Position numbers and translations under genes: made by a program. The notes beneath the pieces were generated by a model. It was given only the letters and a program-made list of their open reading frames with translations. It ran no database searches and was not told the DNA's origin. This document shows positions 6,339 through 59,472 of a DNA stretch of 64,000 nucleotides, in pieces. The stretch is from a virus. The stretch lies in the IMG/VR virus record IMGVR_UViG_3300006217_000017, positions 1 to 64,000 of that record. One strand, given 5' to 3'. Position 1 is the stretch's first letter. Each line of letters starts with the position of its first letter.

Positions 6339-6374
6339 ATTCAATCTCCTTTGTGGAAATTATCGCATAAAAAA

Positions 6375-6405: not shown

Positions 6406-6417
6406 TAACGACATATA

Positions 6418-7828: not shown

Positions 7829-9220
7829 CTAAACAGTAAAAAACACTTTCACATTATCATTCAAAATAACAACTTTTTCAACACACTGTTTTAACGCTTT
7901 GTTCTTTTCTCGAGAATTCAGTTTTTCCCATACATCGGAAATGCGCCTAATTTTATCAATTTTCTCCACATCAACACCCCTTTCAGCATCTTTAAACATA
8001 GACAATTCCATTTTTAAATCCGAAACCCTATTCTCTTCCTCCTGTATCAGTTCCATGAGATTGTCACTCTCTTTTTCAGCATACAACGAATAATATTTCT
8101 TAATCTTCGTATTGGATTTCTTGATAGCATCTTCAATAATTTCGGCTTTACTTTCGGTCTTCTGCGTTTCCTCGACATTAACCGAAAATCTCTTAAAAGC
8201 ATCCTCAACCTCTGCTTCGATTTCGCTTGCCCTTACCTTATCATTATCGCAATTTGGGTCTTTTATCATATACTCTTTCCCGTGTTTATATTGTGAGTAG
8301 CATACCAATTTATGATATTTCCCCCACTTCTGATACCGCATTCTCGCACCGCAAACGCCACAATAGCAAAGCCCGGTTAAGATATTGTCATTCGTTACAT
8401 GGGAATTTGTATGACGCTTCTTCATGCACTCCTGTGCCTGATAAAAAGTATGTTCATCTACAATTGGCTCATGCAATCCCTTATATTCCTCTCCCTTATA
8501 CTCGATAATTCCAATGTTTGACTTTCTCTTAATTATTTGTGTTACAATCCTCTCTCCTTTAAAACCAAGCATTTTCGATATTCGTTCGCAGGAATAACCG
8601 TCAATATACAGTTTGTATGCTTTCCTTACAATCTCCGCTTCATCTTCCTTCGGGTGCAATATACCATCATTTCGGTCATAGTAATACCCATACGGTGTTC
8701 TGCCACCGCCCATCCATAAGCCTTTTTTGACGCGTTCCTTCATCCCTGCCCTTGTACGCATATAGATGACTTCCCTCTCATACTGCCCCATAATGGCATT
8801 GACACCAATCATAACCTTGTCCATAGGGTTTTCAAACTTTAAATCCTCTGTCATGGAAACGACTTGTACGCCATATTTTGGCAGGAAACGATACAAAAGG
8901 TTCAGCGTGTCAATCACATCTCGGCTCATTCTGTCTAGCTTGTAGATAAATACCTTTGCAATCAATCCTTTCTCGCTGTCGTCAAGAAGTTCTGTTATCT
9001 GCGGACGGTCTAATTTGCTTCCACTATATCCTCCGTCTATGTACCACTTGTCAATAACCACTCCTTCCCTGTTGCAGTAGTCAAGTATCTTCTGTTTCTG
9101 CATATCCAAGCCATATTTCTCCGTCTGCGCTTCGGTTGATACCCTCAAATATGCCACATTCTGTTTTCTCATTGCCAAATCCTCCTTAAAAGGGAAATGG
9201 CTAGGTTTTGTACTAGCCAT
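7829..9220 (-). CDS. large serine recombinase (integrase type)
   Basis: N-terminal resolvase domain (VAYLRVSTEAQ...YIDGGYSGSKLDRP...KLDRMSRD). A recombinase domain, a Cys-rich zinc-ribbon segment and a coiled-coil follow. Total length is 463 aa. Confidence 0.9.
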   Translation of the reverse strand: MASTKPSHFPFKEDLAMRKQNVAYLRVSTEAQTEKYGLDMQKQKILDYCNREGVVIDKWYIDGGYSGSKLDRPQITELLDDSEKGLIAKVFIYKLDRMSRDVIDTLNLLYRFLPKYGVQVVSMTEDLKFENPMDKVMIGVNAIMGQYEREVIYMRTRAGMKERVKKGLWMGGGRTPYGYYYDRNDGILHPKEDEAEIVRKAYKLYIDGYSCERISKMLGFKGERIVTQIIKRKSNIGIIEYKGEEYKGLHEPIVDEHTFYQAQECMKKRHTNSHVTNDNILTGLCYCGVCGARMRYQKWGKYHKLVCYSQYKHGKEYMIKDPNCDNDKVRASEIEAEVEDAFKRFSVNVEETQKTESKAEIIEDAIKKSNTKIKKYYSLYAEKESDNLMELIQEEENRVSDLKMELSMFKDAERGVDVEKIDKIRRISDVWEKLNSREKNKALKQCVEKVVILNDNVKVFFTV

Positions 9221-38031: not shown

Positions 38032-38340
38032 TTAATCCTCTCTTAATTTGGTAACAATCGTGTATAAAACTGCTGAATTTGTTGTTTCCTTTATGCCTAA
38101 ACGCTTCCACGCTTCACTATCTTTATCAATCCTCGAAAATGCGTGTCTAATTCCCCTTTCAACTCTTGCGGTATTGGAATTAAATTCTTTCGCCACTTCG
38201 CTGTAAATCCACATGATTTTCATTCGTTCTTTGCTTTGCCTTATAATTTCAATAGCTTTGCAAATATAGGCAAAATCATACAAATTAGGATAAATCCCTA
38301 ATTCAATTAGAAAATCTTCGACTTTCTTTTTCATTGACAA
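38032..38340 (-). CDS. Spo0A C-terminal (DNA-binding) domain-only protein
   Basis: Segment-by-segment match to the Spo0A effector domain. ELGIYPNLYDFAYICKAIEI matches the EIGVPAHIKGYLYLREAI type. IYSEVAKEFNSNTARVERGIRHAF matches the [24 protein letters not shown] type. TNSAVLYTIVTKLR matches the TNSEFIAMVADKLR type. There is no receiver domain. Confidence 0.8.
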   Translation of the reverse strand: MSMKKKVEDFLIELGIYPNLYDFAYICKAIEIIRQSKERMKIMWIYSEVAKEFNSNTARVERGIRHAFSRIDKDSEAWKRLGIKETTNSAVLYTIVTKLRED

Positions 38341-41063: not shown

Positions 41064-41142
41064 TAAGTATTTATTCCGATTTAGATTTCAGTTTAATACA
41101 TTTCTAGAATGTTAAAAATAAGTTCTGAAAATAATCAAAAAT

Positions 41143-41173
41143 GAACCACATATCTCTCCTAGATATGTGGTTC
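41143..41173 (-). terminator. terminator of the late (tail) operon
   Basis: gaaccacatatct-ctcct-agatatgtggttc, a perfect 13-bp stem. On the minus strand it is followed by atttttgattatttt. Confidence 0.65.
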
Positions 41174-41288
41174 GCAAAATAAACAGAAAATTTATTTCAA
41201 TCTATTTAACGCAATGCATCTTTGAAAATCCCCCATATATACTTTTTTCTTAATTATAAAATATTTTTCAAACCCAGTTGTACCATTT

Positions 41289-41327
41289 TGACTGGAGCGG
41301 TTAGTAAGCTAAACACCGATTTGCAGG
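41289..41327. repeat. left inverted repeat of the tail-fibre tip cassette
   Basis: The core GCGGTTAGTAAGCTAAACACCGATTTGCAGG (41297-41327) is identical to the reverse complement of 41953-41983. A flanking TGACTGG extends the match to 39 bp with one mismatch. Confidence 0.95.
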
Positions 41328-41617
41328 CCGCAAAAACGGAAGTTGTACCGGGCATTACTTGCATCAAGTATGGGAAAACCATCATAGTCAATATTGACAA
41401 GGAGATAGATTTCCACGGTGGCTGGAACGTAATAGCTAGCTTACCCTATGCGGCCTTTGGGGTGACAGTAATGTATGGGATTTTCCACACATATGGCGGG
41501 GATGATGCAGGGATTATCCGGGTTTACCAGAAATCGCTGGAACTGGAGATACAGAATTTCAAGGAAGAAAAGACAATCCGGGCAAGGGGAGCGGTTTCAT
41601 ACATTACAGAAGGCTAA
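41289..41617 (+). other. silent alternative tail-fibre C-terminal cassette (startless)
   Basis: The frame reads LTGAVSKLNTDLQ followed by 96 different residues (AAKTEVVPGITCIKYG...AVSYITEG*). There is no convincing RBS or start. Sequence upstream of the repeat is AT-rich and looks non-coding. Confidence 0.7.
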
Positions 41618-41644
41618 GCCGTCCTCTCGCATATGCTGGATTTA

Positions 41645-41660
41645 ATGCCCATTGGGGCAT
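41645..41660. terminator. small hairpin between the two convergent tip cassettes
   Basis: atgccc-attg-gggcat. Confidence 0.3.
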
Positions 41661-41662
41661 GC

Positions 41663-42289
41663 CTAAATTGCAGTTTCATCCCAGTTTGTAGTGTATCTTT
41701 TTACGTTATTTACTATTTTAGTGTAGAAAACCACTCCTTTGGTAGCATAAGAAAACACAATGGCTGATGCATGGGTCCTTTCCCGGAATGGCTGGATGAT
41801 GATCCTATATGTTGGACCCATGACAAAATAGCCAATATATGTGTCGTTCAGTGCCAACGGAAACTTATTAAGTATTTCCTTCACGACATCATCAAGCGTC
41901 TTCTTGCTCCCATCATATGCCCCAAAATCAATACACTTTATGCCATCCATGCCCTGCAAATCGGTGTTTAGCTTACTAACCGCGCCAGTCAGCGTCCCAT
42001 CCCCTATGCTTGCAATATCAGTTGTCCCAAGCATTTTGTAAAGCCACCGGATGTTCTTAAACATTGTGGATATTTTATTGAAAATACTGCTGTGTTTTTC
42101 GCCCGTTGCCAGCAGTGGGGCATCCGTCCAAGCAGCAGGGGATAGGCTGTCTGCGCTGGTGAAACTTACCGTGCTGTCTTTGCTGTCACCTGTTTTCTTT
42201 AAGTATGTTTCTGCTATGCTATTGCCATTTTCATCCGATATGGCTTTCCTGCAAGTACCTTCGATAGTGTCTTTTAAATATAATCCCAT
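41663..42289 (-). CDS. tail fibre protein with an exchangeable C-terminal tip
   Basis: 208 aa. It is the last gene of the tail operon. It contains ...DIASIGDGTLTGAVSKLNTDLQ at residues ~90-112, encoded by the right inverted repeat. Confidence 0.7.
   Translation of the reverse strand: MGLYLKDTIEGTCRKAISDENGNSIAETYLKKTGDSKDSTVSFTSADSLSPAAWTDAPLLATGEKHSSIFNKISTMFKNIRWLYKMLGTTDIASIGDGTLTGAVSKLNTDLQGMDGIKCIDFGAYDGSKKTLDDVVKEILNKFPLALNDTYIGYFVMGPTYRIIIQPFRERTHASAIVFSYATKGVVFYTKIVNNVKRYTTNWDETAI
41953..41991. repeat. right inverted repeat of the tail-fibre tip cassette
   Basis: Reverse complement of 41289-41327 (31 bp perfect; 39 bp with one mismatch). Confidence 0.95.
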
Positions 42290-42302: not shown

Positions 42303-43319
42303 TCAAAATATTTTCCTGAATTTAAACATTAGGGAAATGTAACCTACCATATCTTTGCTAAATGCTGCCTGCATCTTTGCCACCCCGTCGCTTCCCCTTG
42401 CCGTCCTAAGATATAATCTAATTTCATCATTAAGTTTTTTAGAGGAATGCAGCAATATTTCGTCTGTTTCGGAAGAACCGCTTAGGGCAGTATCCCAGTG
42501 CATAATCCCGGCATACCCAAATTCTTCTGTTTGTCCGGTCGGTGTGACATATACAACATATACGCCACTTTTCAAGTCATTCCCTTCCACAACTCCTTGC
42601 CAATAGGTTTTTGGGATTAATGAAACTCCTCGGTAGCTAACTATAAAACCTTGGGAAGCCTCCTCTGCCCTGTCCGCACTCTCCTTTGCCTGCCTCGCGT
42701 ATTCCATGGCATTGTCGGAACCCTCTCCTTCCCTTACCCCAGTCCCGCCATGGGCATAGCTTTCGGACAGTTTTGCAAATTCCTCGGATTTCCCTGCGCT
42801 TAGCTGTGCCTTGCCCTGCTCCACCCTGATGTCCGCAAGGTAGTCCGGGCGCAGGTGCTTCTCCTGTATGCTGCCTTCTTTTATGATTGCTTTTACTTTT
42901 CCTTCTTCCACGGATATTGCTATTGTGTCGCTGTTCAGGAATTCAAGTTCTGTAATCAGCCTTGACAGGTCTACTTCAAACCTTCCCCCTCCTTCCAGCG
43001 GAAGTGTAAGCATTTCTGTAACCGGGTCGTAAAATATATCCAGTGCAACCATCTCAAGAGGTGTGTCAATTGTAATTGTTTCCCCATTTTTTCTTGTAAA
43101 TGTTAAAATTCCATTTGTCTTGTTATACTGAACATCTTTAAAAAGCTTAGATGTATGCTCTAGTAATTCTTCTTTTGAAGCCTTGTTTTCATCCAGATTA
43201 TGGACATTCTCATCCGTCAAATTGATAGAACGAACCATTCTGTTTAAATTCTCTTCGTCTACCGGAGATTCGTCGCTTGGATAGTTTCTCCATACTAAAT
43301 CAATATGAGCGTTGTTCAT
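42303..43319 (-). CDS. tail fibre / baseplate-associated protein
   Basis: 338 aa, lying between the large tail protein and the tip-bearing fibre. The start overlaps the upstream gene. Confidence 0.5.
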   Translation of the reverse strand: MNNAHIDLVWRNYPSDESPVDEENLNRMVRSINLTDENVHNLDENKASKEELLEHTSKLFKDVQYNKTNGILTFTRKNGETITIDTPLEMVALDIFYDPVTEMLTLPLEGGGRFEVDLSRLITELEFLNSDTIAISVEEGKVKAIIKEGSIQEKHLRPDYLADIRVEQGKAQLSAGKSEEFAKLSESYAHGGTGVREGEGSDNAMEYARQAKESADRAEEASQGFIVSYRGVSLIPKTYWQGVVEGNDLKSGVYVVYVTPTGQTEEFGYAGIMHWDTALSGSSETDEILLHSSKKLNDEIRLYLRTARGSDGVAKMQAAFSKDMVGYISLMFKFRKIF

Positions 43320-46300
43320 AACTGCAAATCCTTTCCATTAAAAAAGAAACAGATTCTTTCAATGAATCTATCTCTTTCTTCTGATTTTCTAGTTCTAATT
43401 CCAGTTCCACGTTTTTTCTTCTTAAAAAATCAATTTCTTTTTGTTGCATTTGATTCTTTCTCATGTTCCACATAATGAACTCTGTGTAAATAATCCCCAT
43501 AGGGTCGTCCACCCCACAGTAGTCTTCATTCTCCGGACTATCAGACATTTGGACAAACCCTCCAAAATCTTTCATTGTATATCCGTGTTTTTCGAATGAT
43601 TTTTTTACGTCCTGCGCTTTTACTCCGAAATGATATCTCCCAGAAGTTCCGTTATTATATTTAAATGCGCATGGTTCTATATCCATATACACGTTGTCAA
43701 ATTCATCTAATGGCTTAAAGGAGTTTTTTACGCGCTCATCGGAAGTGGTTATACTTCCGGCAGAGCTTAATACCACAGAATTTCCGCGCAGCCTTGTGGA
43801 AGTTGGTGTATCGCTGTAATTAGAAGCTGGAACACCAACAAAACTATATCTGTCCTCATTCCTGTAACCAATTATGTAATGCATAAGTCCTTCATGCGAT
43901 ACATTTACCCTCACTCCCATATCCCCTGTGTCCCCAGTGAAATCTAAATACCGATTTGCATACAATTTCGTTGCCCTAAATTCACAATGAGCCTGTAGTA
44001 AGTCACTGTATATATGGCAACTTCTGTCTTGGGAAATTTCTTTAAAAGCCAAATAATTATATCCAGAATCAAAATCGTTCTTTGAAAGCCTTCCAAACCT
44101 TAAATCCATATCACCAGTATCGTCAGATTTTATATACGCAATCCTATACCTATCGTCAAAATCTGGGTCCCTTATGTAATAGGCTGAATTCGCCTCTATG
44201 TTTGACCCAGTTATTTTTCCTCCTTTAAAGGTCTGCCCATTAATTTCCCCTCCGTCCAGCCTGTCGCAATTTATCTTTCCAGTCGTTATATTCCCTCCGT
44301 TTATTATTGTTTTTCCATCGTTTTTCGCAAGGTTTTCAAAGCTGACAAGTCCGGAAAATTTTATCTCTTTTGCTTGGCCAGTTATTACGCTGCCATTCTC
44401 TTTTGTCGCTAAAAGAGCCAAGGTTGCAGAAGTAGAGCCATTGGTGACGGACATGTCAATAGACTTAACGGTTTGCGCTATTTTTGAAGAAAGCCCTCTT
44501 TCTGTATCTTCCACCTTTTGTTCTATTCCATCTGCTGTTTGCTTTATCTCGGATCTTATGGTTGTGCTAACCTGCTCAAGTTGCGTGTATTCCCTCCATT
44601 CCACCCATTGAGGCCTGTCAAGCGGATGGTGCTTCACTGCTTCATATACCATTCCGCTTGTCTGGTCTAAATATTTAAGCCCGGGCTTATATTCTTCAGC
44701 CGTCATTATTTTAGATGGTGCACCAAAACCATATTTGTCAATAAGTATCGGTGTGCCATCTACTTTTTTCTCGCTCCATATTTTTTCCGTCCTTGCAACT
44801 GTGCTTGTTATGCTTTCTGCTGTTTGTTTTATTTCAGACGATAAGTTTTCGGTTATCATCTCGAGTTTTTTTACAAATACCCACGAAACTCCATTGGACT
44901 GATAAAGATTTCCATCCGACTGATTCAGGTAATACTTACCGTTATTCTCGCTTGCCTTATATTGCATTTTTTCATCATCAGGCGAAAAATATCCAAATAG
45001 CTCAACATTATATCCTGTTGTATCATATTTACTTGTTGCCTTGCTGACTGTAGAAGTAATACTTTCTGCTGTCTGTACGATTGACGAACGCACGTCTATA
45101 AAATTTCCGTTCGTATCTTTTTCAAAACTTGAAAGTTCTGACCTTGTTTCATCCAAGTTTCTTATAAGGATATTAGTTTTTCCCTTTAGTTGGATAATAG
45201 AATTATGCACTCCGTTTATTTTCCCAGAATATTTCTCTGTTCCATTTGCGCTAAACGCGTCTGCCAAGGACTGTATGCCTTTCAAGGTTCTGTTCAGGAT
45301 GTAAGATTCCACCAATTCATATTTCGTGGGCAACCTTACTGGGTCTCCGACTTCCAAGCACGGATTCCCGATGCAATCAGCAGAAAAAGGCCTATATACA
45401 ATGTGCGTTATCTTGTCAAATATGTTTTTTGCCACCGCTGCCAAATCATCGGAAGATTTTCCGTAGACAAGAAAATTATTTTCAATAACATAGCAGTTGT
45501 CATTTTGCGTTTTACTCCCTTCCGGCCATATCTTCCCTATATCGTTCTCTTCCTGCCTAATTTGCAATCTTGTAATTCTTTTGCAAATGAAATCTTCGTA
45601 TTGGCAGCTTTTGTAACCTCCGGAACCTATTCCAGTAGATTTTGGTGCTTGTGGGTAAAGATGCCCGGTTTCCGACTGTTTGAGATACCATGGAGCGTGG
45701 TCTGGGAACAATGTGTTGCTTGGATACAAGCCCATCATATCTTGTGTAAGATAAATGTAATGGAATTTCCCGTCGCGCCCGATATGCCCAAAGCATCCAT
45801 TAATCTCGCATATCGCCCGAATTACGTCCAGCCCGCTTAGTGAGGATTCTTTCAGTATGCTTACCTGCTGTGTTTCATTGTCAATTTCCGTCCCTTCTTC
45901 TACGCTTATCGTTTTTTCTAGATATAGGCCGTCATTCACCAGCCCATACACCCGCGTCCCATCCTCCCGCACTTCCATGACTGGGTCTACTTCTTTTAGG
46001 CCGAAATGCTCAATAAAACTTTTCCTGAACTGCCTCATCGGGACCCTTCTGTTCATGTCCGGGAAAATAGAGTTGTACCAGCCGACCACGCTTGAATTGA
46101 TAATGTCGTACATGGCATCATACGCCGTTATATCCCGATATAGCCTGTCCGCTGTCGGAACATCAGAAAACACCTTGTACCTGCCAAATTGGAACGGGAT
46201 GTCTGTGTGCCCGTCCAATGTTTCTTCCACAACCAGCCACTTATCTTTCATCTTGGTAAACGTATTGTGTATTTTGAATTTCAGTACGCTTGCTTCGCAG

Positions 46301-46638
46301 CATCCAAAGCGTAGTTCGGATTCCGAGCAAAGGCTTTCAGAAAGCTCAAAATTTTCCCATTCAATGTCTTTGTTTTTGAATACCAGAAGTTCATATTCTC
46401 CCTGCACTGGTTTCCAGTTAAAGGAACTGATTGCAGAAGAAACGGACAAATTTCTGCATTTGTAATAAATCCCGGTTTCTGCATCCAAATAAACTTTTCC
46501 CTCATATTCAGCTTTTGCTTGGTATTTGCTTTCCGGCAGCCCATATCCGACAAAATCACACGCTGTAATTCTAACCTGCTTGTCAACGTGCTGCCTGTTG
46601 TATAATTCCTTGTACATATAATCAACCACGGTAAACAC
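43300..46638 (-). CDS. large tail protein (Tal / host-specificity type) with a C-terminal peptidase S74 intramolecular chaperone domain
   Basis: 1112 aa. The C-terminal SDERVKNSFKPLDEF...YHFGVKAQDVKKSFEKHG...IIYTEFIMWNM plus a terminal coiled-coil matches the auto-cleaving chaperone pattern. Confidence 0.75.
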   Translation of the reverse strand: MFTVVDYMYKELYNRQHVDKQVRITACDFVGYGLPESKYQAKAEYEGKVYLDAETGIYYKCRNLSVSSAISSFNWKPVQGEYELLVFKNKDIEWENFELSESLCSESELRFGCCEASVLKFKIHNTFTKMKDKWLVVEETLDGHTDIPFQFGRYKVFSDVPTADRLYRDITAYDAMYDIINSSVVGWYNSIFPDMNRRVPMRQFRKSFIEHFGLKEVDPVMEVREDGTRVYGLVNDGLYLEKTISVEEGTEIDNETQQVSILKESSLSGLDVIRAICEINGCFGHIGRDGKFHYIYLTQDMMGLYPSNTLFPDHAPWYLKQSETGHLYPQAPKSTGIGSGGYKSCQYEDFICKRITRLQIRQEENDIGKIWPEGSKTQNDNCYVIENNFLVYGKSSDDLAAVAKNIFDKITHIVYRPFSADCIGNPCLEVGDPVRLPTKYELVESYILNRTLKGIQSLADAFSANGTEKYSGKINGVHNSIIQLKGKTNILIRNLDETRSELSSFEKDTNGNFIDVRSSIVQTAESITSTVSKATSKYDTTGYNVELFGYFSPDDEKMQYKASENNGKYYLNQSDGNLYQSNGVSWVFVKKLEMITENLSSEIKQTAESITSTVARTEKIWSEKKVDGTPILIDKYGFGAPSKIMTAEEYKPGLKYLDQTSGMVYEAVKHHPLDRPQWVEWREYTQLEQVSTTIRSEIKQTADGIEQKVEDTERGLSSKIAQTVKSIDMSVTNGSTSATLALLATKENGSVITGQAKEIKFSGLVSFENLAKNDGKTIINGGNITTGKINCDRLDGGEINGQTFKGGKITGSNIEANSAYYIRDPDFDDRYRIAYIKSDDTGDMDLRFGRLSKNDFDSGYNYLAFKEISQDRSCHIYSDLLQAHCEFRATKLYANRYLDFTGDTGDMGVRVNVSHEGLMHYIIGYRNEDRYSFVGVPASNYSDTPTSTRLRGNSVVLSSAGSITTSDERVKNSFKPLDEFDNVYMDIEPCAFKYNNGTSGRYHFGVKAQDVKKSFEKHGYTMKDFGGFVQMSDSPENEDYCGVDDPMGIIYTEFIMWNMRKNQMQQKEIDFLRRKNVELELELENQKKEIDSLKESVSFLMERICSYEQRSY

Positions 46639-47110
46639 CTCCTATAAACGCAAGCCGTATTGGGTTGTACTGGATGATTGGGTTTTTCTTTAAACTATTT
46701 TCTGCGTAATACATCTGTGGCTGGAAGTCGGCCAGATATCCCATCTGCCATTCAAAATAATTGTCATATTCCGGGACATATGCCTGCATATAAAACTGCC
46801 TTGCCTTCGGAACGTTATACTGCGCAGCGATATTCCTCATGAGTTCGCTGAATGTTATGTTTGTCATCATGGCCCGGGTTTCAAATTCAACCTTCAATGC
46901 TTTCAGTTCTACCGCATCCCTATGCTGGTATCCGTTTGCATCGGGCCATGTATCCACGTCCTGCATGTTCACGTATGCGCTGTAGGATTCTGCTGCTATG
47001 TATTTTATTGGTATGTTATAGAATTCCCCTATTTTATCTGACGGCGTTCTTGCTACTCTTATGAGCCATCCTTCATATGCCAAATATGCCGCCTCCTTAA
47101 AAATAAGCAT
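46622..47110 (-). CDS. putative distal tail protein
   Basis: The call rests on its position immediately upstream of the Tal-like gene. A TTG at 47083 with an AAGGAGG RBS may be the true start. Confidence 0.4.
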   Translation of the reverse strand: MLIFKEAAYLAYEGWLIRVARTPSDKIGEFYNIPIKYIAAESYSAYVNMQDVDTWPDANGYQHRDAVELKALKVEFETRAMMTNITFSELMRNIAAQYNVPKARQFYMQAYVPEYDNYFEWQMGYLADFQPQMYYAENSLKKNPIIQYNPIRLAFIGGVYRG

Positions 47111-47216: not shown

Positions 47217-47516
47217 TCAAATCCTTACTTTATCCACATAACCACTTATCTCTGTGTGTAACTTATGGATAAACATTACATTTTCATACTTATTTGATTC
47301 CTCCTCACTTATTAAACACGTGACCGGACGCCTGATTCCTTCCGATATCCGAACTACTGTTGAAAGCCTGATATCTTTTTTCTTCCCATCCAATATGTAA
47401 TTCAGTTCCCGGAGGGAAATCCCACACTCTTCTGACATGTGCTTCATGCTACACCCAGTCCTGCTCATGTGCCGGAAAAGCTGCTGCCTTAAGTTCTCCA
47501 TGCAATTTTCCATCAT
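47217..47516 (-). CDS. HTH (XRE-like) protein
   Basis: CSMKHMSEECGISLRELNYILDGKKKDIRLSTVVRISEGI. Confidence 0.45.
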   Translation of the reverse strand: MMENCMENLRQQLFRHMSRTGCSMKHMSEECGISLRELNYILDGKKKDIRLSTVVRISEGIRRPVTCLISEEESNKYENVMFIHKLHTEISGYVDKVRI

Positions 47517-48016
47517 TCCACCTCCACTCCAAACTGGGAAAGTAAGTAATGTTTCAAATCTTCTTTTCCCTTCATATGCCCTAGCCGGAATGCTAAATCT
47601 ACCGCATTGTTCGGATTGGTTTTATTCGCAATCTCAATCAGGTTAAAATAGTCCTCCCAGTCCATCCCAGATTTTATACTTTCAGTGCGTTTCCGGTATT
47701 CCTTAAGCATACTATTGATTTTAGAATTTTTGTGTTCCTTCCTATTTAAATGCAGAAAGCCTTTGAAATGTTTCAGTGCATTGTGTCGCGCCACTTCAAA
47801 TACCTTTTTATAAAATTCCTCCTGCGTGAGGCTTCCCTTCATCCTACTGCATGTTTCGCAAGTGCATTGCATGTTTGAAAAATCTTTTCCTCCCCCTTTT
47901 GATGGAGGGTTTTTCCGGTTAATGCACATTTCCACTAATTGCAGTTTCTTCCCGCAGATGGAGCATTTCCCGCTGTACATACGGTATACGGTTTCCCGGA
48001 CTTCGGAATACTTCAT
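47513..48016 (-). CDS. HNH endonuclease
   Basis: CSICGKKL...NRKNPPSKGGGKDFSNMQCTCETCSRMKG. The start is taken at the internal MKYSEV, which has an RBS (gaggaatg). The track ORF extends to 48142. Confidence 0.7.
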   Translation of the reverse strand: MKYSEVRETVYRMYSGKCSICGKKLQLVEMCINRKNPPSKGGGKDFSNMQCTCETCSRMKGSLTQEEFYKKVFEVARHNALKHFKGFLHLNRKEHKNSKINSMLKEYRKRTESIKSGMDWEDYFNLIEIANKTNPNNAVDLAFRLGHMKGKEDLKHYLLSQFGVEVE

Positions 48017-48020
48017 GTTC

Positions 48021-48179
48021 TTACTCACATTCCTCACCCCGCTTTCCTTCCAGTACCCGCAGGGCTTCTTCGTGGATTTTCCTGTCCATCTCGTTCGTAT
48101 CAATGGAAACCTGATACTTGAGGGCTGCAATCTGCTGTTCAAGTTTCTTCTTGTCTTTCGGGACTTCTACTCTTAACAT
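48021..48179 (-). CDS. hypothetical 52-aa coiled-coil protein
   Basis: Hand translation: MLRVEVPKDKKKLEQQIAALKYQVSIDTNEMDRKIHEEALRVLEGKRGEECE. Confidence 0.3.
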   Translation of the reverse strand: MLRVEVPKDKKKLEQQIAALKYQVSIDTNEMDRKIHEEALRVLEGKRGEECE

Positions 48180-48291
48180 TCCCCCACACCCCCTTTCAAT
48201 TTAAGGGATTGCTGGGAGTTTATCATTTTTATTTTTAATCTATCCATTTTTCCTTCCTTTCAAAAACCAGAAGGATTGGAAATCGTAAATG

Positions 48292-49179
48292 TCAGTCTTT
48301 TCTATTTGTTGCCTTATCGAACAGGGCTTCAAATTCCTCCCATGTGTCAGACGCTCTCATAAGGGCAATCACCTTTTGGAGCTGCTTGTCAAGATGCGGA
48401 ACTCCTATCTCATCTGTCAAAGATTGGTGTAACCTCCTACTCTTCGGAGTTTTGCTTTTCAGTTCTTCTAGAACCCCGTCTGTCAGTTGCTCATATATGT
48501 ATTGGTTTGTCAACTTCCCTACATACTGCGGTCGGCTGTTTCCGTTGTATGCCCATCCTTTCAGACGGAACATCTGCTTGTAAAATTCGTCTGGAAATCG
48601 CTTTGCCCACGGCATAAGTTCCTCGCTTATGTAAGCCGATAAAAGCCTCTGTAATTCATCATGTTCCCTGTCGTACTGATATCCTGTTACTTCATCAATC
48701 AGAGAATCAAGCCCGACTTTTGCAAAAGCGGTCATTATAGCGTATAGCCTTTCGGCAGTTTCAACTTGCGCCTTGTTCAATATTCCATCGTTCTTTGCGT
48801 CCGCATACGCTTTGCATATGTCTACAAATATAGATGATTTCATTGGGAAGAATGGCGTACCCCTTTTCGTGAGATACTGCGGCAGTTCATTCCTCGTTGA
48901 TTTATACACCCAATCCCTCAATTCTTCCGAAAGATATGGCGCAATCCACAAAGAATTTAAATTTCTTTTTAATGCTGTTCCGCCGCCGCCCGTGAGATTC
49001 ATGGCTTTCGCCGCTCCTCTGGAAGACAAAACCCGTTCCTTGTTGTCCATGACATAACATTCCAATTCCAGTCCTTCTCCTATTTTCCATGTTCCACTGT
49101 GTGTCGCCCTTGGCTGTTTCATATTCGCTTGCCCCTTTCCTGTTTTCTTGATTATACATTTAGGAAAGTGTCCAGTCAA
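48292..49179 (-). CDS. P63C-domain protein
   Basis: GYQYDREHDELQRLLSAYISEELMPWAKRFPDEFYKQMFRLKGW. The likely true start is the internal MKQPRA at about 49122. Confidence 0.6.
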   Translation of the reverse strand: MTGHFPKCIIKKTGKGQANMKQPRATHSGTWKIGEGLELECYVMDNKERVLSSRGAAKAMNLTGGGGTALKRNLNSLWIAPYLSEELRDWVYKSTRNELPQYLTKRGTPFFPMKSSIFVDICKAYADAKNDGILNKAQVETAERLYAIMTAFAKVGLDSLIDEVTGYQYDREHDELQRLLSAYISEELMPWAKRFPDEFYKQMFRLKGWAYNGNSRPQYVGKLTNQYIYEQLTDGVLEELKSKTPKSRRLHQSLTDEIGVPHLDKQLQKVIALMRASDTWEEFEALFDKATNRKD

Positions 49180-49256
49180 GAACGCACTTTTTTATTTTAG
49201 TGGACGCTCACTAAAAATCAGAAAATTTCATTTTAGTAAGTGACCGGATTGGGATG

Positions 49257-49922
49257 CTATACATCAAGGTACATCTGTTCGTATTCTGGCACTCTCACGA
49301 AATCCTCTGTGAGTTCCACGCCGAACTGCAGGGAAACTTTCTGGAAGTTCTCCGCAATCTTATGCGGAGCAAGGCTCTGGCGATGGGCTACTCTGTCCAT
49401 AATCTTTAAGTAACTGGCAAGTTCGCCTAACTGGATTTCGGATGGGTTGCATAACTGTGTTTGTTCCTGCTCCTTGCTTGGGAGGAAAGCGTCTGCAAGG
49501 ATGTCTTTGGCTTTGAGTTGATACTGCATTAACTTCCTCGCGAAGTCTGGTCGTTCTTCTCTAGTCTTTTCTGTTATCTGTATTTTCGCAAGCCAAAGTG
49601 GGACAAAATCATGTCTGATACAGAAAACATCCTGCGTTCCACTACCTGTCGGGAGGGGGATCTGATTAGATCCACCTTCGCTGAATACCATATCTTTCTT
49701 GATGTTCTTAACCTGTCGTTTCATCTGTCCTTCTGTCATTTCAAGTGCATCACATACCCAACGCACACCCACCCAGATATTTCCTTCTGCGTCTTTTGCG
49801 GCTTTGATGGAATCTCCCATCACGTCTACATTCTTTACAATCATTTCTTCCATATAAAAACCACCTTTCAAAAAATGTTTTTGACATTCCTTAAGAAAGG
49901 TGGTAATATATACACATACCAC
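49257..49922 (-). CDS. phage antirepressor N-terminal-domain (P22_AR_N-like) protein
   Basis: GNIWVGVRWVCDALEMTEGQMKRQVKNIKKDMVFSEG...PTGSGTQDVFCIRHDFVPLWLAKIQI. The likely true start is MEEMIV at about 49853. Confidence 0.7.
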   Translation of the reverse strand: MVCVYITTFLKECQKHFLKGGFYMEEMIVKNVDVMGDSIKAAKDAEGNIWVGVRWVCDALEMTEGQMKRQVKNIKKDMVFSEGGSNQIPLPTGSGTQDVFCIRHDFVPLWLAKIQITEKTREERPDFARKLMQYQLKAKDILADAFLPSKEQEQTQLCNPSEIQLGELASYLKIMDRVAHRQSLAPHKIAENFQKVSLQFGVELTEDFVRVPEYEQMYLDV

Positions 49923-49978
49923 CTTTGCAAAAAGGAATTTGGTTGTTGAGTAATCGTGCGGTCGCCAAACTACAACGA

Positions 49979-50170
49979 TTACTCTTTTTCTTTTAATTCT
50001 TTATAAACCCTTTCAATACCCATTCTTACGACATCTACTTTTTTCATTCCTGTTTTTGAAACACAGAAATTCAATTTTTCAATGTCGCTGTCAGACATTC
50101 TAAAACTTTCCCTATGCCACTTTGGGTCTTTTGAGGGCGGTCTGCCATGTGCTGGCGACAATCTTATCAT
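49979..50170 (-). CDS. ribbon-helix-helix-like small regulator
   Basis: GRPPSKDPKWHRESFRMSDSDIEKLNFCVSKTGMKKVDVVRMGIERVY. Confidence 0.45.
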   Translation of the reverse strand: MIRLSPAHGRPPSKDPKWHRESFRMSDSDIEKLNFCVSKTGMKKVDVVRMGIERVYKELKEKE

Positions 50171-50183
50171 CTCCCTTCTTTAT

Positions 50184-50225
50184 ATGTTATGACACTAATT
50201 ATAAATGTTATGACATTTAATGTCA
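50184..50225. promoter_or_regulatory. operator-like repeats upstream of the RHH-like gene
   Basis: ATGTTATGACA occurs at 50184 and 50205, 21 bp apart. The palindrome TGACAT-tta-ATGTCA lies at 50211-50225. Confidence 0.5.
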
Positions 50226-50340
50226 ATACCTAAAACAGAAAAATATATAAATTTAGGGTGCCTCCAAATTAGAAGCACCCTTCTGTCTATTACTGTTTCA
50301 AAAGAAAATATAGAATCTGCATACTAAATTTTAAAACCAT

Positions 50341-52382: not shown

Positions 52383-55300
52383 TCAATAAACCTCTTCCGC
52401 AAGCACAAGCCTGCCTCCTATATTCCTATTTCTCCCTTCTCTCGTTCGCTTCACAACATTTTTATAAACTGCATCTCCATCTAGGTTTAATTGTAGAGAT
52501 ATATCCCCGCTCCCAGCCGCTCCATTATTTCTCATTGCAGATGAAACCGCATTGTATACCGCCGGGTAAATGGCTTCTGCAATCCCCTGCGTAATCTGCC
52601 CATTATTGGCTACTGCTGTCTGCCCGTTACTGAACCTTCCAATAACTTCATTGTGGTTCGCATAGAAAAGCCCGTCCTCCGGGAATCCTCCATTTCTGTA
52701 CTGCGGTATCAGGTCTGCAATGTTGATTTTTCCTATGCCGGATGCGTAGCCCTTATTCTTCCCCCAGTTCCCGGCTATACCACCAGACTTGCTTACCACA
52801 TATCGAATTGCCGCAAGCATATTTGATAATGGATCCCATATATCCTTGTTGTATGGTGCTAACGCAAATGCCCGGAATGTAGAGTCAATTACTTGTAATA
52901 TTCCCTTTGATGGAGTTCCTCTTTTTGCGTTTGCATCCCATAGGTTTATCGCCCTTGGGTTCCCGCTGGATTCCGTCTGTATCTGTTTCATCATGAGTTC
53001 CAGGTTCAGCGCACTGAAATGACCTGTCATTTGAAGTGCCTTTGTCGCAAGCCCCCTCCACTGTTCCACGCCCTTAGACGGGTTATACTGCACTGTCAGG
53101 TTTTCGTCAAATATTTTCTTTATAAAACCTGTTGCCCCATCTAAGAGTGTGCTTGCCGCTCCTTTGGCTATGGAAAGCACTGGTTCGAGCATCCCGGATA
53201 GGTCTGTGAACTTATCAAACGCAATCTGTAAAATCTTTTCTGGATGTGTTAGGTAATCCCATACATTCCCAGTAAATTCTGTTATCTTAGACCACGCTCC
53301 TGCAAAAAAATCCCCGATACCTCCTGCAAAGCACGGCATTCCATTCATTTTCTGCATAAGGTCTTTCGTCTGGCGGGCTGGCATGATTTTTGTTCCTTTT
53401 TCCATAGGGAGCATGACATTTCTTCCCTCTGGTATGAACGGTTTTCCATGTGGAGGTACGATAAGTTCTTTGTAGACATTTCCTTTCTGGTCGTTTACGA
53501 TTCCTATGGTGTCTTGTGGAAGACCCCTGTCACCTTTTGCAAACTGTGGAACCGTCCATAATTCAAGTGGTTTTCCTGCTCCAACCTTATCAAGAACCCA
53601 ATTGATTCCTTTTATAATTCCATTTATAGCATCGCCAATTGGTTTAATAATTCCATTTGCAATGCCTTTGAAGAAATCTCCGATCGCTCCAAATACCCCT
53701 GTTATTCCATCATATGCATCTTCGAACGCCCCCTTTATCTTGCTAGAAACTCCATCTTTCTTCTCGAAAACCGCAACAACCTTATCTCCTACATTCGTCT
53801 TAAACCATCCGCTTACCGCATTCCATACACCCTTCACTAGATTCCAGGCTGTCGAGAAAGCATTGGATATTTTGGTTTTTAGTCCATCAAATACCTTTTT
53901 AACTGGATCTATAACGTACTTATTGAACCAATTAGATACTTTTTCCCATACTTTTTTTGCGCTTTCCCATGCACTTGAAAAGAATTTACCTATTTCTTTT
54001 GTGTCAATTCCGAATTGCTTTAGGAATCCACCAAAAATTCCCCCTATCCCTTCAAGTATTTTTGAAAATCCTTCTCCTATTTTTTCCGTATCAAGCGTGA
54101 AAATTCCTGTTAGAATATCAAAAATTCCTGTCAGGGTATCTATTACACCCCCTACCATTGTCGCAAAACCAGAAATCATATTTCCGAGTACAGTAAATAC
54201 AGCAGACGCTACAATCCCTGCTACTATTGTTGCAAGAGAAGCTAATATTTCAACAACCTTTTTTATTCCACTTCCTTCGTAAAAATCATAAATAGCCTGT
54301 CCTAATTCCTTAATTTTTTCCCACAAAGGGGTAACCGAATTTCTTATTTTTTCAAATGCTCCAACTAGACTATCTTTTACCATAGAAAATGCAAGTCCAA
54401 CAGAATCCCTAAAAGTTTCGCTTGTGTTCCAAAGGTCTACAAGCACCGCTGCCACACCTGCTATTGCAGCCAATATTGGAAGAGACGGCAATGAAAGGCC
54501 ACCAAGTGCTGTAGCTAAGCTTGTTGATAGTGAAGTTGCAATATTTCCAGATATGAGTTTTCCTATTCCAGTAAATTTAAAAAATCCAAACACTGCTATT
54601 AAAGCTGTTTCCAATGGTGCTTCTTGTATCAGACCTCCAAGCAATTCAAATCCTGCCTTTATAGCCTCCCATAATGCAGTTGCTAATTTTCCTGCAATTT
54701 CAAGAAAATCAAGTTCTGCAAGGAATGTCCCTATCTTTTGCCCTATCTGTTCAAAATCTGTTTCTTGCAATAATGTGGTAACAGTAGTTAATCCTCCCTT
54801 TATCCAAACGTTTATTGATTCCGCAAGTCCAACAAAATCAAATGTTTCAAAAAATCCGTTTATTCCGTCTGATATAGAAAGACCTATTTGCTCAAAATCA
54901 AGTGTCGTGCCAAGATTTAAAGCAAACTGTATCGCGGTATTCAGCGCGTTTGCCAATGTACTCCCAACAAGGGAAAAGTCTGTTTCTTGGAAGAATCCGT
55001 TTATCGCGTTTCCAATCCCAGTTCCCCATTTCTTAGCAGCAGACAATGCAGTTTCCCAGTCGATTCCTTCTAATGCAGCATTTATCCCGGCTCCTATGGA
55101 AATTCCGAAATTTTCAAAGTCAAATGTTTCCCCAAAAGAATCAAGGAAATGCAATGCTGTATTCAACGCCCCTGCAATTGTTTTTCCAAGTGCTGAAAAA
55201 AGTTCCGGAGAAATCAGACCATTTAAGAACTGCGCAAGACCAGACCCGAAATTCCTAGCTTTTTTATACACAGAATCCCATGGTATGCTCTCCATAGCCT

Positions 55301-57434
55301 TTGTTAGTGCATCTCCAATATATTCCCCAAGTTTATACAAGGAATCTATGTCGCTGGTAAATTTCTTTATAATGCTTTCTCCCGGGTTCCATTTCCCTCC
55401 AAGGCCTTCCCCTGCCGCTGCGCCACCTTCTGCTCCCCCCGCTCCGTTTCCTCCTGTTTCTCCTGAAGGTTCTGGGAAGTCTATGGTTTTCAGTTCGTCA
55501 AATGCGCGGATTCCCTTTTTCATCTTGTCAATGTTCTTTGCTGCCGTCCCAGTGGAATCTGCAACATCTTCCGCGCCTTCCGCTGCGCCTCCGAAATCCT
55601 GTGCAAGACCTCCCCCACCTTCTTCATATGTCCATCCGAATATCTGCCCGAGTGCATTTGAAATTGTCTTGGCAAACGCTATGATATGGCTCATTGCTGC
55701 ATTTATTACTTTCACCACCGGCTTAAATGAATTTACCAATACGCCCCCAATTACCGCTGCGAGCTGCTCAAAGTTCTGCCTCATTATCCTCGTCTGGTTT
55801 GCCCATGTGTCTGCGGTTCTGGCAAAGTCATTATGCGCTGCGGTTGTGTTTGCCATAACGTACTGGTATCGGAGCATGGTCTTTTCTGCCTGTGACATGG
55901 ATTTTATGTCAGCGTCAAGGCCATTTTTCATTGCCCATTCTGCAAGAGTGGCCTGTGTCAAATCCAATCCATATGTACGCAGCGGTACTGTCATGCCAGT
56001 GAATATTGCCTCCAAATCCTTTGCAACGTCTTTTTGTTCTACATTGTAAAGGGATGCCATGTCAGCAGTTAATTTTGTCATGTTCAGAGAAACATCGGAC
56101 ATGGAATCTGAAAGCCCTATATACCCTTCTGTCTGCTCATTCAGGAACTTATTGGCATCATTAATCAGCCCTGAATTAATTCCCATCGCTGCGCCCATGG
56201 ACTGGAACCTGCTGGCGTATTGCTTTAAGGAAAGTTCAGACATCCCAAACTGTTCAATAGAAGTTTTCGCAAAATCCTCCACTTTGTAAGCCATGTCGCC
56301 AAATGTTGCGTCCACCACGTTCTGTACTTCTGTCAGGTCAGAAGAAATGTCCATGGCTTTCATCGCCCCGCGCACAGTCCCATAAAGGCCAAGAGTAACT
56401 CCCATTGCAGAAAGAACGCTTCTCGAAAAATTCTTTATCCCTCCCAGTGCTTTCCCTATGCTACCGTTCAGCCCATTCATGGACTTGGACAGTTTATTTA
56501 TTCCGGAATTGAATGTGTTTGCAGATATCCCGCTGCTTGTGAATACATTCCCAAGCCCCCTTACTGCGCTTCCCGTCCTCCCTCCAGCATTTGCAAGCTG
56601 CGAAAGTGCCTGCGTCATCTGTATGGTGTTCTGGCTTACGTTTGGCGCGCCTGACATAGTTTGGAAAAATTTTAAAAGCTCGTCCCCGAGTTTTTTCAGG
56701 CTATTTGCCGTTGTTTCCGTCTTCTTCCCGGCATTTGCAAGGGTTCCAACTGCCTGTGTAAAAGTTATCGTATCCGTCTCTACAGATTTTGCCCTTGAGA
56801 TTTTATTCATGAATTCCCCAAGGTTCTGTCCAAGTCCCGGAAGCGCAGATGCTGCTTCTCCCGCCCCTGCTCCAGCATTTGCAAGTTTTGCCACGGCATT
56901 TGTCATAGAAATTGTGTTCTGCTTTACTTCTTCCGCCTTGGATAAAGTCTGCGCAAGTCCGTTTATGGAATTTCCAAGTGATGCAAAGTCAATGTTTGCA
57001 AGGCTTGAGGTATTTGCGTTTGAAAGTCTTGTCAGGCTATTTACTAGGTTTGTCAGGTTTTTGTTGTCAAACTTTGCGTTGCTTAAAATATTGATGCCGT
57101 CCGCAAGCGGACTTAGCGCGTTTCCTACCGCCTCTATGTTCCCGGTCTGAATAGCCGCAAGCCGCTCAATTCCAGTAGCCAGACGGTTAAAATCAGTTTT
57201 TTTAATTCCCTGAAGCTCTTTCATTCCAGAAGCCAGTGTCTTTACGCCAACTCCGAGATTTTTAATCCCAGTTCCGTTAATATTGGAAAGTTTTTCTAAA
57301 CTTGTAGTATCAAATTTTAATTTTTTAGAAAGTGTTTCTAGGCTTTTAGAAAGAGAATCAATTGACTTCTTTGCTTTACCCGCCTCTGATGTTATTTTTA
57401 TTTCAAGAGAATCTATTTCCGCCATGTCTGCCAC
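52383..57434 (-). CDS. tail tape measure protein with a C-terminal lytic transglycosylase (SLT) domain
   Basis: 1683 aa with repetitive helical segments, Gly-rich TM-like stretches, and QTESSGNPRAINLWDANAKRGTPSKGILQVIDSTF. Confidence 0.9.
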   Translation of the reverse strand: MADMAEIDSLEIKITSEAGKAKKSIDSLSKSLETLSKKLKFDTTSLEKLSNINGTGIKNLGVGVKTLASGMKELQGIKKTDFNRLATGIERLAAIQTGNIEAVGNALSPLADGINILSNAKFDNKNLTNLVNSLTRLSNANTSSLANIDFASLGNSINGLAQTLSKAEEVKQNTISMTNAVAKLANAGAGAGEAASALPGLGQNLGEFMNKISRAKSVETDTITFTQAVGTLANAGKKTETTANSLKKLGDELLKFFQTMSGAPNVSQNTIQMTQALSQLANAGGRTGSAVRGLGNVFTSSGISANTFNSGINKLSKSMNGLNGSIGKALGGIKNFSRSVLSAMGVTLGLYGTVRGAMKAMDISSDLTEVQNVVDATFGDMAYKVEDFAKTSIEQFGMSELSLKQYASRFQSMGAAMGINSGLINDANKFLNEQTEGYIGLSDSMSDVSLNMTKLTADMASLYNVEQKDVAKDLEAIFTGMTVPLRTYGLDLTQATLAEWAMKNGLDADIKSMSQAEKTMLRYQYVMANTTAAHNDFARTADTWANQTRIMRQNFEQLAAVIGGVLVNSFKPVVKVINAAMSHIIAFAKTISNALGQIFGWTYEEGGGGLAQDFGGAAEGAEDVADSTGTAAKNIDKMKKGIRAFDELKTIDFPEPSGETGGNGAGGAEGGAAAGEGLGGKWNPGESIIKKFTSDIDSLYKLGEYIGDALTKAMESIPWDSVYKKARNFGSGLAQFLNGLISPELFSALGKTIAGALNTALHFLDSFGETFDFENFGISIGAGINAALEGIDWETALSAAKKWGTGIGNAINGFFQETDFSLVGSTLANALNTAIQFALNLGTTLDFEQIGLSISDGINGFFETFDFVGLAESINVWIKGGLTTVTTLLQETDFEQIGQKIGTFLAELDFLEIAGKLATALWEAIKAGFELLGGLIQEAPLETALIAVFGFFKFTGIGKLISGNIATSLSTSLATALGGLSLPSLPILAAIAGVAAVLVDLWNTSETFRDSVGLAFSMVKDSLVGAFEKIRNSVTPLWEKIKELGQAIYDFYEGSGIKKVVEILASLATIVAGIVASAVFTVLGNMISGFATMVGGVIDTLTGIFDILTGIFTLDTEKIGEGFSKILEGIGGIFGGFLKQFGIDTKEIGKFFSSAWESAKKVWEKVSNWFNKYVIDPVKKVFDGLKTKISNAFSTAWNLVKGVWNAVSGWFKTNVGDKVVAVFEKKDGVSSKIKGAFEDAYDGITGVFGAIGDFFKGIANGIIKPIGDAINGIIKGINWVLDKVGAGKPLELWTVPQFAKGDRGLPQDTIGIVNDQKGNVYKELIVPPHGKPFIPEGRNVMLPMEKGTKIMPARQTKDLMQKMNGMPCFAGGIGDFFAGAWSKITEFTGNVWDYLTHPEKILQIAFDKFTDLSGMLEPVLSIAKGAASTLLDGATGFIKKIFDENLTVQYNPSKGVEQWRGLATKALQMTGHFSALNLELMMKQIQTESSGNPRAINLWDANAKRGTPSKGILQVIDSTFRAFALAPYNKDIWDPLSNMLAAIRYVVSKSGGIAGNWGKNKGYASGIGKINIADLIPQYRNGGFPEDGLFYANHNEVIGRFSNGQTAVANNGQITQGIAEAIYPAVYNAVSSAMRNNGAAGSGDISLQLNLDGDAVYKNVVKRTREGRNRNIGGRLVLAEEVY

Positions 57435-58536: not shown

Positions 58537-59472
58537 CTATTTTACATATACCTTTCCGTTGTGCATTGCCGCAACCCATCCAGAAGGTGTGCGAATCCAT
58601 ATATCTTCCCCGTTCCTTTTCACGTCCTTGCAAGTGACCCTCGTACCCTTGTCTAAACACCCATCTCCATCTGCATCATGGTTTCGCCCATCTCCAGTAA
58701 GCTCACTGTGTTTTTTTGCCCGGTATTCTGTCCCAGCCCCTTCCCGGACTTTCATCTCTGCCTGCAATGTGTATACGCTTCCAATCTGGTATTCTTTCTT
58801 TTCCATTTGTGTCCTGTTGGAATACACTTTTTCGAGCCTTGCCCTGGATGCATTTCCGCACAGTCCGTCTTCCTTCAATTCATTGTCGTGCTGGAATTTT
58901 AACAGGGCTTTTTCTGTGTTCTTCCCGAAATCCCCATCTGCACCGTCTGCACCGCAAGAATACCCGCAACCTATAAGCATAATCTGCATATCTTTCACTT
59001 TCTGCCCTTTATCCCCTTTTTGCAGCCAGCTTCGGCTAACATCCTGTGCAACATTTTTATTTGGAACTTCCTCACCCGTATTTTCGAAAAGCGTGCGGAT
59101 TTCCATTAAGTCACTCCTTCGGTATACGCTGGAATACACAACCCCTTTCCCCGGATTGTTTTTCGTATTGGAAGAGCCTCCAATAGATTCATACATGCCG
59201 CCATCTCCTGCGTAGAAAGCAATGTGCGTTGCGCGTCCATTTTTTCCGAAATAAAGCAAATCTCCCTTTTTCTTCTGTGATGAAGGAATCTTTTTCCCGA
59301 TTTTGCGGTAACCGTCCGCTGTTGTCCGGTTCACTTTAAATCCAGAATCCAGAAGTACGTTGTATACATATCCAGAACAATCATATCCGCCTTCTTCCAT
59401 GGATTCCCCGCCCCAGACATATGGCTTTCCAAGGTATTTTACACAATTTGCAATAATATTTTCCCTGCTCAT
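58537..59472 (-). CDS. NlpC/P60 endopeptidase with peptidoglycan-binding and SH3-like domains
   Basis: YVWGGESMEEGGYDCSGYVYNVL...THIAFY carries the Cys/His catalytic pattern. GADGDFGKNTEKALLKFQ is PG_binding_1-like. The C-terminal region looks SH3-like. Confidence 0.85.
   Translation of the reverse strand: MSRENIIANCVKYLGKPYVWGGESMEEGGYDCSGYVYNVLLDSGFKVNRTTADGYRKIGKKIPSSQKKKGDLLYFGKNGRATHIAFYAGDGGMYESIGGSSNTKNNPGKGVVYSSVYRRSDLMEIRTLFENTGEEVPNKNVAQDVSRSWLQKGDKGQKVKDMQIMLIGCGYSCGADGADGDFGKNTEKALLKFQHDNELKEDGLCGNASRARLEKVYSNRTQMEKKEYQIGSVYTLQAEMKVREGAGTEYRAKKHSELTGDGRNHDADGDGCLDKGTRVTCKDVKRNGEDIWIRTPSGWVAAMHNGKVYVK

Follow-up and report, generated by a model that had tools for sequence, protein, structure and literature searches.

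The window analysed here, a stretch of 64,000 nucleotides (nt) of viral DNA (positions 1 to 64,000 of IMG/VR record IMGVR_UViG_3300006217_000017), contains on its minus strand a tail-fibre gene of 208 amino acids (aa; 41663..42289), together with an inverted repeat through which the C-terminal tip of the fibre could be exchanged for another. A preliminary description of this DNA had reported an inverted repeat of 31 bp if perfect, or 39 bp with one mismatch, having its right copy in the last tail-fibre gene, and a repeat search confirmed it: the two arms were 39 nt long and 97% complementary, with 31 nt perfect, at a spacing of 625 nt (Table 1). The perfect 31-mer, GCGGTTAGTAAGCTAAACACCGATTTGCAGG, was present in exactly two copies on opposite strands, with 0.00 copies expected from 100 shuffles, and both arms encoded LTGAVSKLNTDLQ in frame. 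Within the fibre gene LNTDLQ made up codons 107–112, thereby dividing the protein into a constant part of 112 aa and a tip of 96 aa. The left arm was found inside a plus-strand frame open from a TTG at 41222, in which codons 36–131 (41327–41614) encode an alternative tip; its length, counted as 96 aa in the preliminary description, proved to be just that.

The product predicted upon inversion of the segment was a 208-aa open reading frame (ORF) without interruption, having the 112-aa constant part in frame with the silent 96-aa tip, and the left flank, which is followed by GCCGCAAAAACGG as assembled, would in the inverted form be followed by GGCATGGATGG. The architecture of an invertible cassette swapping the C-terminal tip of the fibre, as proposed at the outset, was thus supported by the in-frame arrangement of 112 + 96 aa and by the uninterrupted predicted recombinant. 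The 625-nt segment held the two 96-aa tips only, with no tail-fibre assembly genes of the U/U' type. The two tips had also been described as converging on a small hairpin, which turned out to be indistinguishable from that of shuffled sequence (z = 0.01); a better, terminator-like hairpin was found instead just beyond the left arm. As it lies outside the segment, that hairpin would terminate late transcription whichever way the segment is oriented.

Table 1. Coordinates, on the window, of the tail-fibre locus and the features belonging to it
Feature	Position	Strand	Remarks
Left (silent-side) arm	41289..41327	+	Core CTAAACACCGAT at 41309–41320; 19-nt core 41309–41327
Right (expressed-side) arm, within the fibre gene	41953..41991	-	Core 12-mer at 41960–41971, minus strand
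Predicted invertible segment, 625 nt	41328..41952		Two convergent 96-aa tip cassettes
Constant N-terminal part of the tail-fibre gene	41954..42289	-	Codons 1–112, ending LTGAVSKLNTDLQ
Currently expressed tip	41663..41953	-	GMDGIKC..., 96 codons plus stop
Silent alternative tip	41327..41617	+	AAKTEV..., 96 codons plus stop; without ATG or ribosome-binding site of its own
Terminator-like hairpin	41173..41143	-	13 pairs plus T-run; directly beyond the left arm
Upstream distal-tail genes (338 aa, 1112 aa)	42303..46638	-	PHROG tail-fibre families; Peptidase_S74 domain

The site at the arms was compared over 32 distinct contexts, being the two of the window and 30 others from mouse-gut prophages of Lachnospiraceae type (contigs and proteins are given below with our own L and P numbers). 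The sole element invariant in 32 of the 32 contexts was the 12-mer CTAAACACCGAT, encoding LNTD and usually extended to a sequence ending in TTGCAG. The 5' flanks of the sites were specific to their position and the 3' sequence moved with the tip, with up to three tip types seen per flank type. Since the 12-mer is invariant while both of its sides vary, the crossover must take place inside it or right at its boundaries. At the protein level the hinge of the fibres followed the motif G-T-L-T-G-A-x-S-K-L-N-T-D with the core CTAAACACCGAT at LNTD, a pattern that the fibre of the window displays as well. It was also clear that one 12-nt core and one pool of tips were common to siphovirus-like and myovirus-like backbones. 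Scans of large collections for the site were uninformative, with no match to the 18-nt core in IMG/VR, while GTDB genomes gave only five single chance matches, each in an unrelated phylum, and none at a Lachnospiraceae locus. A metagenome scan with the phage-specific 39-mer likewise gave zero matches, even though the Joint Genome Institute contig L001 has this 39-mer; the collection scanned evidently lacks that contig, and the zero therefore says nothing on orientation.

One near-copy of the core, CTAAATACCGATTTGCAT, was found in the window at 43944–43961 on the plus strand, antisense inside the 1112-aa fibre gene and 2 kilobases (kb) from the switch. It has two mismatches over 18 nt, one of these within the invariant 12-mer, and it is found also in L001; the chance expectation for a core with at most three mismatches was about 0.1 in the whole window. 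This is probably a pseudo-site, with a relic or chance also being conceivable. If it recombined with the expressed site, two genes would be broken up.

When the native fibre and the predicted chimera were used as protein queries, the database fibres retrieved had a wide variety of tips attached to their N-termini, the joint lying exactly at KLNTD. N-termini homologous to the constant part in the window were found with at least eight different tips, an N-terminus starting MGINLKD with at least six, and one starting MAAETENYGF with three, including a tip of the silent type of the window. In that protein (P0001) the silent-type tip is thus fused to a fibre N-terminus, and P0001 matched the predicted chimera at 77% identity across 87% of its length. 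Short ORFs from different contigs likewise had one silent-side leader in common but either tip behind it (P0004 and P0128; P0003 and L029). In L002–L007 we found a 491-nt stretch of the very segment of the window at 99.8% identity; there the silent position is occupied by the native tip, next to a tyrosine recombinase. The only cultured phage sharing part of the constant region was Roseburia phage Jekyll (60% over residues 34–111), which has no switch.

A clean inversion was seen for a two-site locus present in opposite orientations in L026 and L059. Their left flanks were identical over 943 of 943 nt, the 653-nt segment was 100% identical but inverted, the right flanks were 97.1% identical, and the two alignments overlapped in the 18-nt core. 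The flipped orientation was found also in L056, with left flank and segment 100% identical to those of L026, where a methyltransferase gene and a helix-turn-helix (HTH) gene follow downstream and no recombinase is present within about 3 kb; in its sister variant L055 a recombinase lies 400 nt downstream, followed by a third site. More elaborate loci, with four sites in the order +,-,+,- and two convergent tip pairs, were carried on one siphovirus-like backbone (L010, L011, L039 and L043), a 969-aa BppU_N gene and a tyrosine recombinase gene being placed between the two pairs. L047 has a backbone of the L010/L039 type, with the contig ending after the second site, and its first tip pair was identical to the second pair of L039 at 719 of 720 nt, although the two pairs occupy different places in this common backbone. 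Recombinant fibres exactly as predicted were found in the protein collection for L010, L039 and L026. The breakpoints of cassette-pair replacements coincided with the core (L048 compared with L017, and L039 with L010); as the tips are non-homologous, such breakpoints by themselves cannot separate site-specific from homologous exchange.

In three of the four-site loci (L010, L039 and L043, at about 6.3–13.2 kb of each locus) the 969-aa BppU_N/Peptidase_G2 gene and the recombinase lie between oppositely oriented sites, and from this layout they could be invertible themselves; a single orientation relative to the fibre gene was seen in all contigs. Many contigs (L002–L009, L040–L042, L046) end inside or at the invertible region, with L008 ending at its match to window position 41964 and four Logan contigs breaking off exactly 103 nt beyond the stop codon of the cassette, which is consistent with assembly graphs being broken by mixed orientations or cassette variants. 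The LNTD-hinge family would thereby account for assembly breaks at the fibre gene of these prophages.

With regard to enzymes, the sole recombinase of the window was a 463-aa large serine recombinase (7829..9220), about 32 kb from the segment. Neither a small serine invertase nor a tyrosine recombinase was found in the 64-kb window using Pfam on 48 ORFs and tblastn, and the tyrosine recombinase of the relatives had no tblastn homologue in the window for either of the lineages queried. The preliminary description, which had noted no invertase beside the segment and only the large serine recombinase in the 64 kb, was in that respect supported. Among relatives the situation was different, with the silent cassette in L002–L009 abutting a tyrosine recombinase of 287–344 aa (PF13495 plus PF00589), and with such an enzyme accompanying LNTD sites in L002–L011, L029, L039, L043 and L055. 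Three recombinase lineages could be distinguished, at 60–69% mutual identity and each adjoining sites; they are represented by P0160/P0161, a 332-aa protein of L055 and a fragment in L029. The enzyme scored 235.6 bits against the NCBIfam model NF040815 (XerA/integron-integrase type; cut-off 220) and resembles XerC/D without an arm-binding domain. No PF00239 gene or small serine invertase was found at any related locus. From the repeated association of gene and sites, we infer that this Xer-like tyrosine recombinase is the invertase of the LNTD-site family.

A gix/hix-like site served by a hidden small serine invertase had been considered as a candidate and was dropped, as no protein with a Resolvase domain other than the integrase was found in the window or at any related locus and the relatives carry a tyrosine recombinase. 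A likeness of the arm to gix, amounting to 16 of 26 positions as judged by eye, was a lead only and was likewise dropped.

Both tips had close homologues. The native tip was 84–89% identical in 208-aa homologues (P0006–P0021) and the alternative tip 94–98% identical to P0003 and P0004, and the ratios of nonsynonymous to synonymous substitution rates (dN/dS) against relatives were 0.07–0.09 for the expressed tip and 0.13–0.29 for the silent tip. Decay of the silent cassette had been named beforehand as the sign that would speak against a maintained alternative tip; no stops or frameshifts were found in silent cassettes across 12 loci, and the silent tips are under purifying selection. The intact ORF, its dN/dS and the fusion of this tip type to a fibre N-terminus in P0001 together support that the silent tip is maintained and functional. 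Neither tip yielded a receptor-binding fold: the AlphaFold2 model of the native fibre had a predicted local distance difference test score (pLDDT) of 60, with the tip reaching about 80 in an alpha/beta fold, and gave nothing below E = 1e-3 against the PDB using Foldseek (best match a phi812 baseplate chain, 0.03), and the model of the alternative tip, with a pLDDT of 38, was unusable.

The arms of this phage alone were 39 nt long, against 18–19 nt in the 30 other contexts. The silent-side flank of the window has TTGTACCATTTT in common with the flank of L017 and L027 (about 6963–6990 in L017), followed by 19–20 nt copied from the constant region, and it is because of this copy that the arms are 39 nt instead of 18–19 nt. 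Such an extension cannot be created by site-specific inversion and points to past gene conversion or homologous exchange.

On the minus strand the 208-aa gene is the last of a distal-tail module, in which the tape-measure gene (52383..57434) and a DUF6711 protein (46622..47110) are followed by the 1112-aa fibre with its Peptidase_S74 chaperone domain and the 338-aa protein with a tail-fibre-like C-terminus; with these two distal-tail genes upstream, the 208-aa gene thus ends the tail-fibre module. Neither the 208-aa fibre nor its two tips belonged to any family in Pfam, PHROGs or NCBIfam. To the left of the segment are genes for an XRE-type repressor and a Cro-like protein. After the last fibre gene (41064–41663) there is no holin or endolysin, as compared to L012 and L017 having lysis genes directly behind the silent cassette; a protein with NlpC/P60 and PG_binding_1 domains is encoded upstream instead (58537..59472).

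Some further genes of the window should be mentioned. A regulatory, moron-like block (47513–52168, minus strand) lies at an odd location between the tape-measure and distal-tail genes, containing an HNH endonuclease, a P63C domain, a P22-type antirepressor N-domain, a protein with an oligonucleotide/oligosaccharide-binding fold and a Rha regulator. A 102-aa protein of the early region (38032–38340, minus strand) consists of the C-terminal DNA-binding domain of Spo0A standing by itself (PF08769, 47.7 bits), and through it the phage may imitate this master regulator of sporulation. The early region also encodes, at 18678–19475, 21773–22441 and 28257–28838 (minus strand), a protein with a 3'-phosphoadenosine 5'-phosphosulphate (PAPS) reductase domain and two DNA or S-adenosylmethionine methyltransferase-like proteins, which may have anti-restriction or DNA-modification roles. 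To the left of the integrase (761–7164) are four ORFs of 248–410 aa without Pfam match at E ≤ 0.01, and the flank beyond the prophage end held no recognisable housekeeping DNA.

We read the window locus as an orphan two-cassette member of a shufflon family served by Xer-like tyrosine recombinases, flipped by a cognate enzyme acting in trans, and we give this reading about an even chance of being right. Judged by its relatives, the locus is of the Rin- or Rci-like tyrosine shufflon kind and not of the Gin/Cin kind. The site would be CTAAACACCGAT, a short asymmetric core that overlies the codons for LNTD(LQ) in the hinge joining the constant N-terminus of the fibre to exchangeable tips of 90–121 aa, and the enzyme would be an armless, Xer-like tyrosine recombinase of 326–344 aa, the gene for which relatives have adjacent to their sites or in the interval separating them. 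When the two oppositely oriented cores recombine and the segment inverts, the other tip would be read from the fibre promoter. With a gene for this recombinase absent from the 64 kb, flipping here would need the cognate enzyme to act in trans, its source being a related prophage in the same cell or else genomic sequence that the window does not cover. A wider proposal, which we put forward only tentatively, is that unrelated Lachnospiraceae prophages, siphovirus-like and myovirus-like alike, share the 12-nt LNTD-hinge core as a recombination currency while only some of them encode the Xer-like invertase, and that phages lacking a recombinase flip their host-range switch and exchange whole tip-cassette pairs by means of an invertase borrowed in trans from a co-resident prophage.

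Several observations weigh against the trans-acting reading. The left site of the window has an expressed-type 5' flank, GGTTAGTAAG, where most other silent sites have YCA, which could alter recognition, and the tyrosine recombinase is nominated as invertase through its association with the sites. The predicted chimera and the silent ORF of the inverted state were both absent from about 15 billion proteins, a result of low power with the fibre being present on three contigs only, and the phage has the same orientation in L001, its only other contig. Two abundant two-site lineages, of L012 type and L017 type, which have no recombinase in their sampled flanks, were by exact look-up of the silent ORF or fibre in about 40 contigs each found in one orientation only, which is compatible with locked switches. 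Exact look-up is an insensitive probe, however, since the simple s1 x s2 product was absent also for the recombinase-bearing L010. Finally, the source contig may continue beyond the 64-kb window.

The chief rival reading is that the locus is a locked relic, sharing the shufflon ancestry but having lost its recombinase and no longer flipping, with the silent tip kept either by recency of that loss or by refreshing exchange with other phages. We regard this as a real possibility, although one rather unlikely to be correct. The lack of a recombinase in 64 kb, the single orientation of both known contigs, the missing inverted products in the protein collection and the one-sided orientation of the L012- and L017-type loci all agree with it, as do the 39-nt arms unique to this phage with a silent-side flank overwritten by constant-region sequence, impossible by site-specific inversion. 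A relic is less easily reconciled with a silent tip that is intact at a dN/dS of 0.13–0.29, or with the comparable two-site locus that lacks an adjacent recombinase and yet was found in both orientations at 100% segment identity, and a sample of three contigs is very thin ground for calling the phage locked. The unusual arms also invite the thought that rare RecA-dependent recombination flips the segment with no site-specific recombinase at all, as they are 39 nt (31 perfect) against 18–19 nt in all relatives and their extension points to homologous recombination or gene conversion at the locus. Repeats of 31–39 nt are at or below the length for efficient homologous recombination, which would give a very low and unregulated rate, and the family-wide 12-nt core beside a tyrosine recombinase argues for a site-specific design; homologous flipping therefore appears improbable to us.

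That the 463-aa large serine recombinase doubles as invertase, a possibility raised by the preliminary description and suggested by its being the only recombinase of the window, was unsupported. The core is present also in L018, which has a tyrosine integrase at its prophage end, and at loci with a dedicated Xer-like recombinase, and no copy of it lies near the integrase of the window. Large serine integrases pair attP with an unlike attB and are not known to recombine two identical sites. Taken together, the occurrence of the core in L018 and in phages with the Xer-like enzyme and this property of large serine integrases make the integrase a very unlikely actor. We hold it still harder to believe that the locus is not a switch, the plus-strand cassette being debris of tail-fibre mosaicism and the repeat a conserved coding hinge. 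The combinations of N-termini and tips could indeed have come from homologous recombination at a conserved hinge, but the perfect 31-nt identity falls off abruptly on both sides, the silent cassette is intact and constrained, and relatives display position swaps as well as a clean inversion with its ends at the core.

The range of bacteria open to infection by a phage is set by the tips of its tail fibres. As this locus shows, prophages of gut Firmicutes employ a compact and portable tip-swapping module built on a 12-nt site; site and tips circulate among different phage backbones, with some phages keeping the switch without the enzyme. Should the recombinase indeed be provided in trans by a co-resident phage, the host range of a gut phage would hinge on the other prophages present in its cell, a phage–phage interdependence that is testable; should invertases more generally be borrowed, host-range variation would become a communal trait held between phages. 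For programmable inversion among multiple states, the short core and its small Xer-like recombinase make up a candidate tool as well.

Among known systems, the classical invertible segments of Mu (G), P1 (C) and p15B (Min) are alike in having an invertible segment with inverted repeats in a tail-fibre gene, a constant N-terminus and convergent alternative C-termini. They use the serine invertases Gin, Cin and Min, whereas the relatives of the present locus have a tyrosine enzyme and the window has no adjacent invertase; here the 96-aa tips are furthermore bare, lacking a U/U'-type assembly gene, and the site is a 12–19-nt asymmetric core as compared to a 26-bp dyad. The likeness to these systems drawn in the preliminary description hence held for the architecture and failed for the enzyme, given that relatives with the identical core have an Xer-like tyrosine recombinase and no small serine invertase. 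The R64/IncI shufflon (Rci, sfx, PilV) shares the tyrosine recombinase, multiple inversion, short asymmetric sites with only one side of the site conserved, and C-terminal adhesin tips, but it varies a plasmid pilus adhesin instead of a phage fibre, and the likeness drawn here is one of function.

A BV01-like Phocaeicola phage has been described as encoding a shufflon of several cassettes that overlaps a tail-fibre gene at its distal end, with a flanking recombinase and 10-bp directional motifs (PMC13596623); that system differs in phylum, motif and cassette organisation, and has its recombinase in cis. In function the present system also matches the Rin shufflon, described from prophages of Bifidobacterium (Mavrich et al. 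2018, PMC6109161) and reported as well from those of Eggerthella lenta (PMC8778435). That the crossover logic may differ from the classical systems, as the preliminary description had cautioned, was in this light a real difference, yet one already known in kind from such tyrosine-recombinase shufflons of receptor-binding proteins (Rin, PMC6109161). Rin has a constant N-terminus of a receptor-binding protein with exchangeable C-terminal cassettes, a short asymmetric repeat between the cassettes (the 11-bp rix, where we find a 12-nt core), an armless XerD-like tyrosine recombinase separate from the prophage integrase (here in relatives only) and inversions mapping to the repeat (here seen in relatives only). 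It differs in that rix, TTCCCTAACCC (PMC6109161), is unrelated to CTAAACACCGAT and in that the host phylum is another. The cassettes studied here are moreover arranged in convergent pairs, with the four-site relatives holding the recombinase and the 969-aa BppU_N gene between pairs, the core and tips span siphovirus-like and myovirus-like backbones, and the window locus has no recombinase.

A second, two-cassette inversion without flanking recombinase, for which a trans-acting invertase was proposed, has been reported in the Bifidobacterium prophages Bb423phi2 and 689b-1 (PMC6109161), and the idea of an orphan switch consequently has precedent. The sequences are different from ours, and no recombinase-bearing sister loci were identified there; here the relatives nominate a cognate enzyme. 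Our literature searches found no prior description of a Lachnospiraceae LNTD-hinge fibre shufflon family. Fibre-tip shufflons with tyrosine recombinases are known already, and of broader interest in the present family are the sharing of core and tips across backbones and the presence of recombinase-less switches beside recombinase-bearing relatives.

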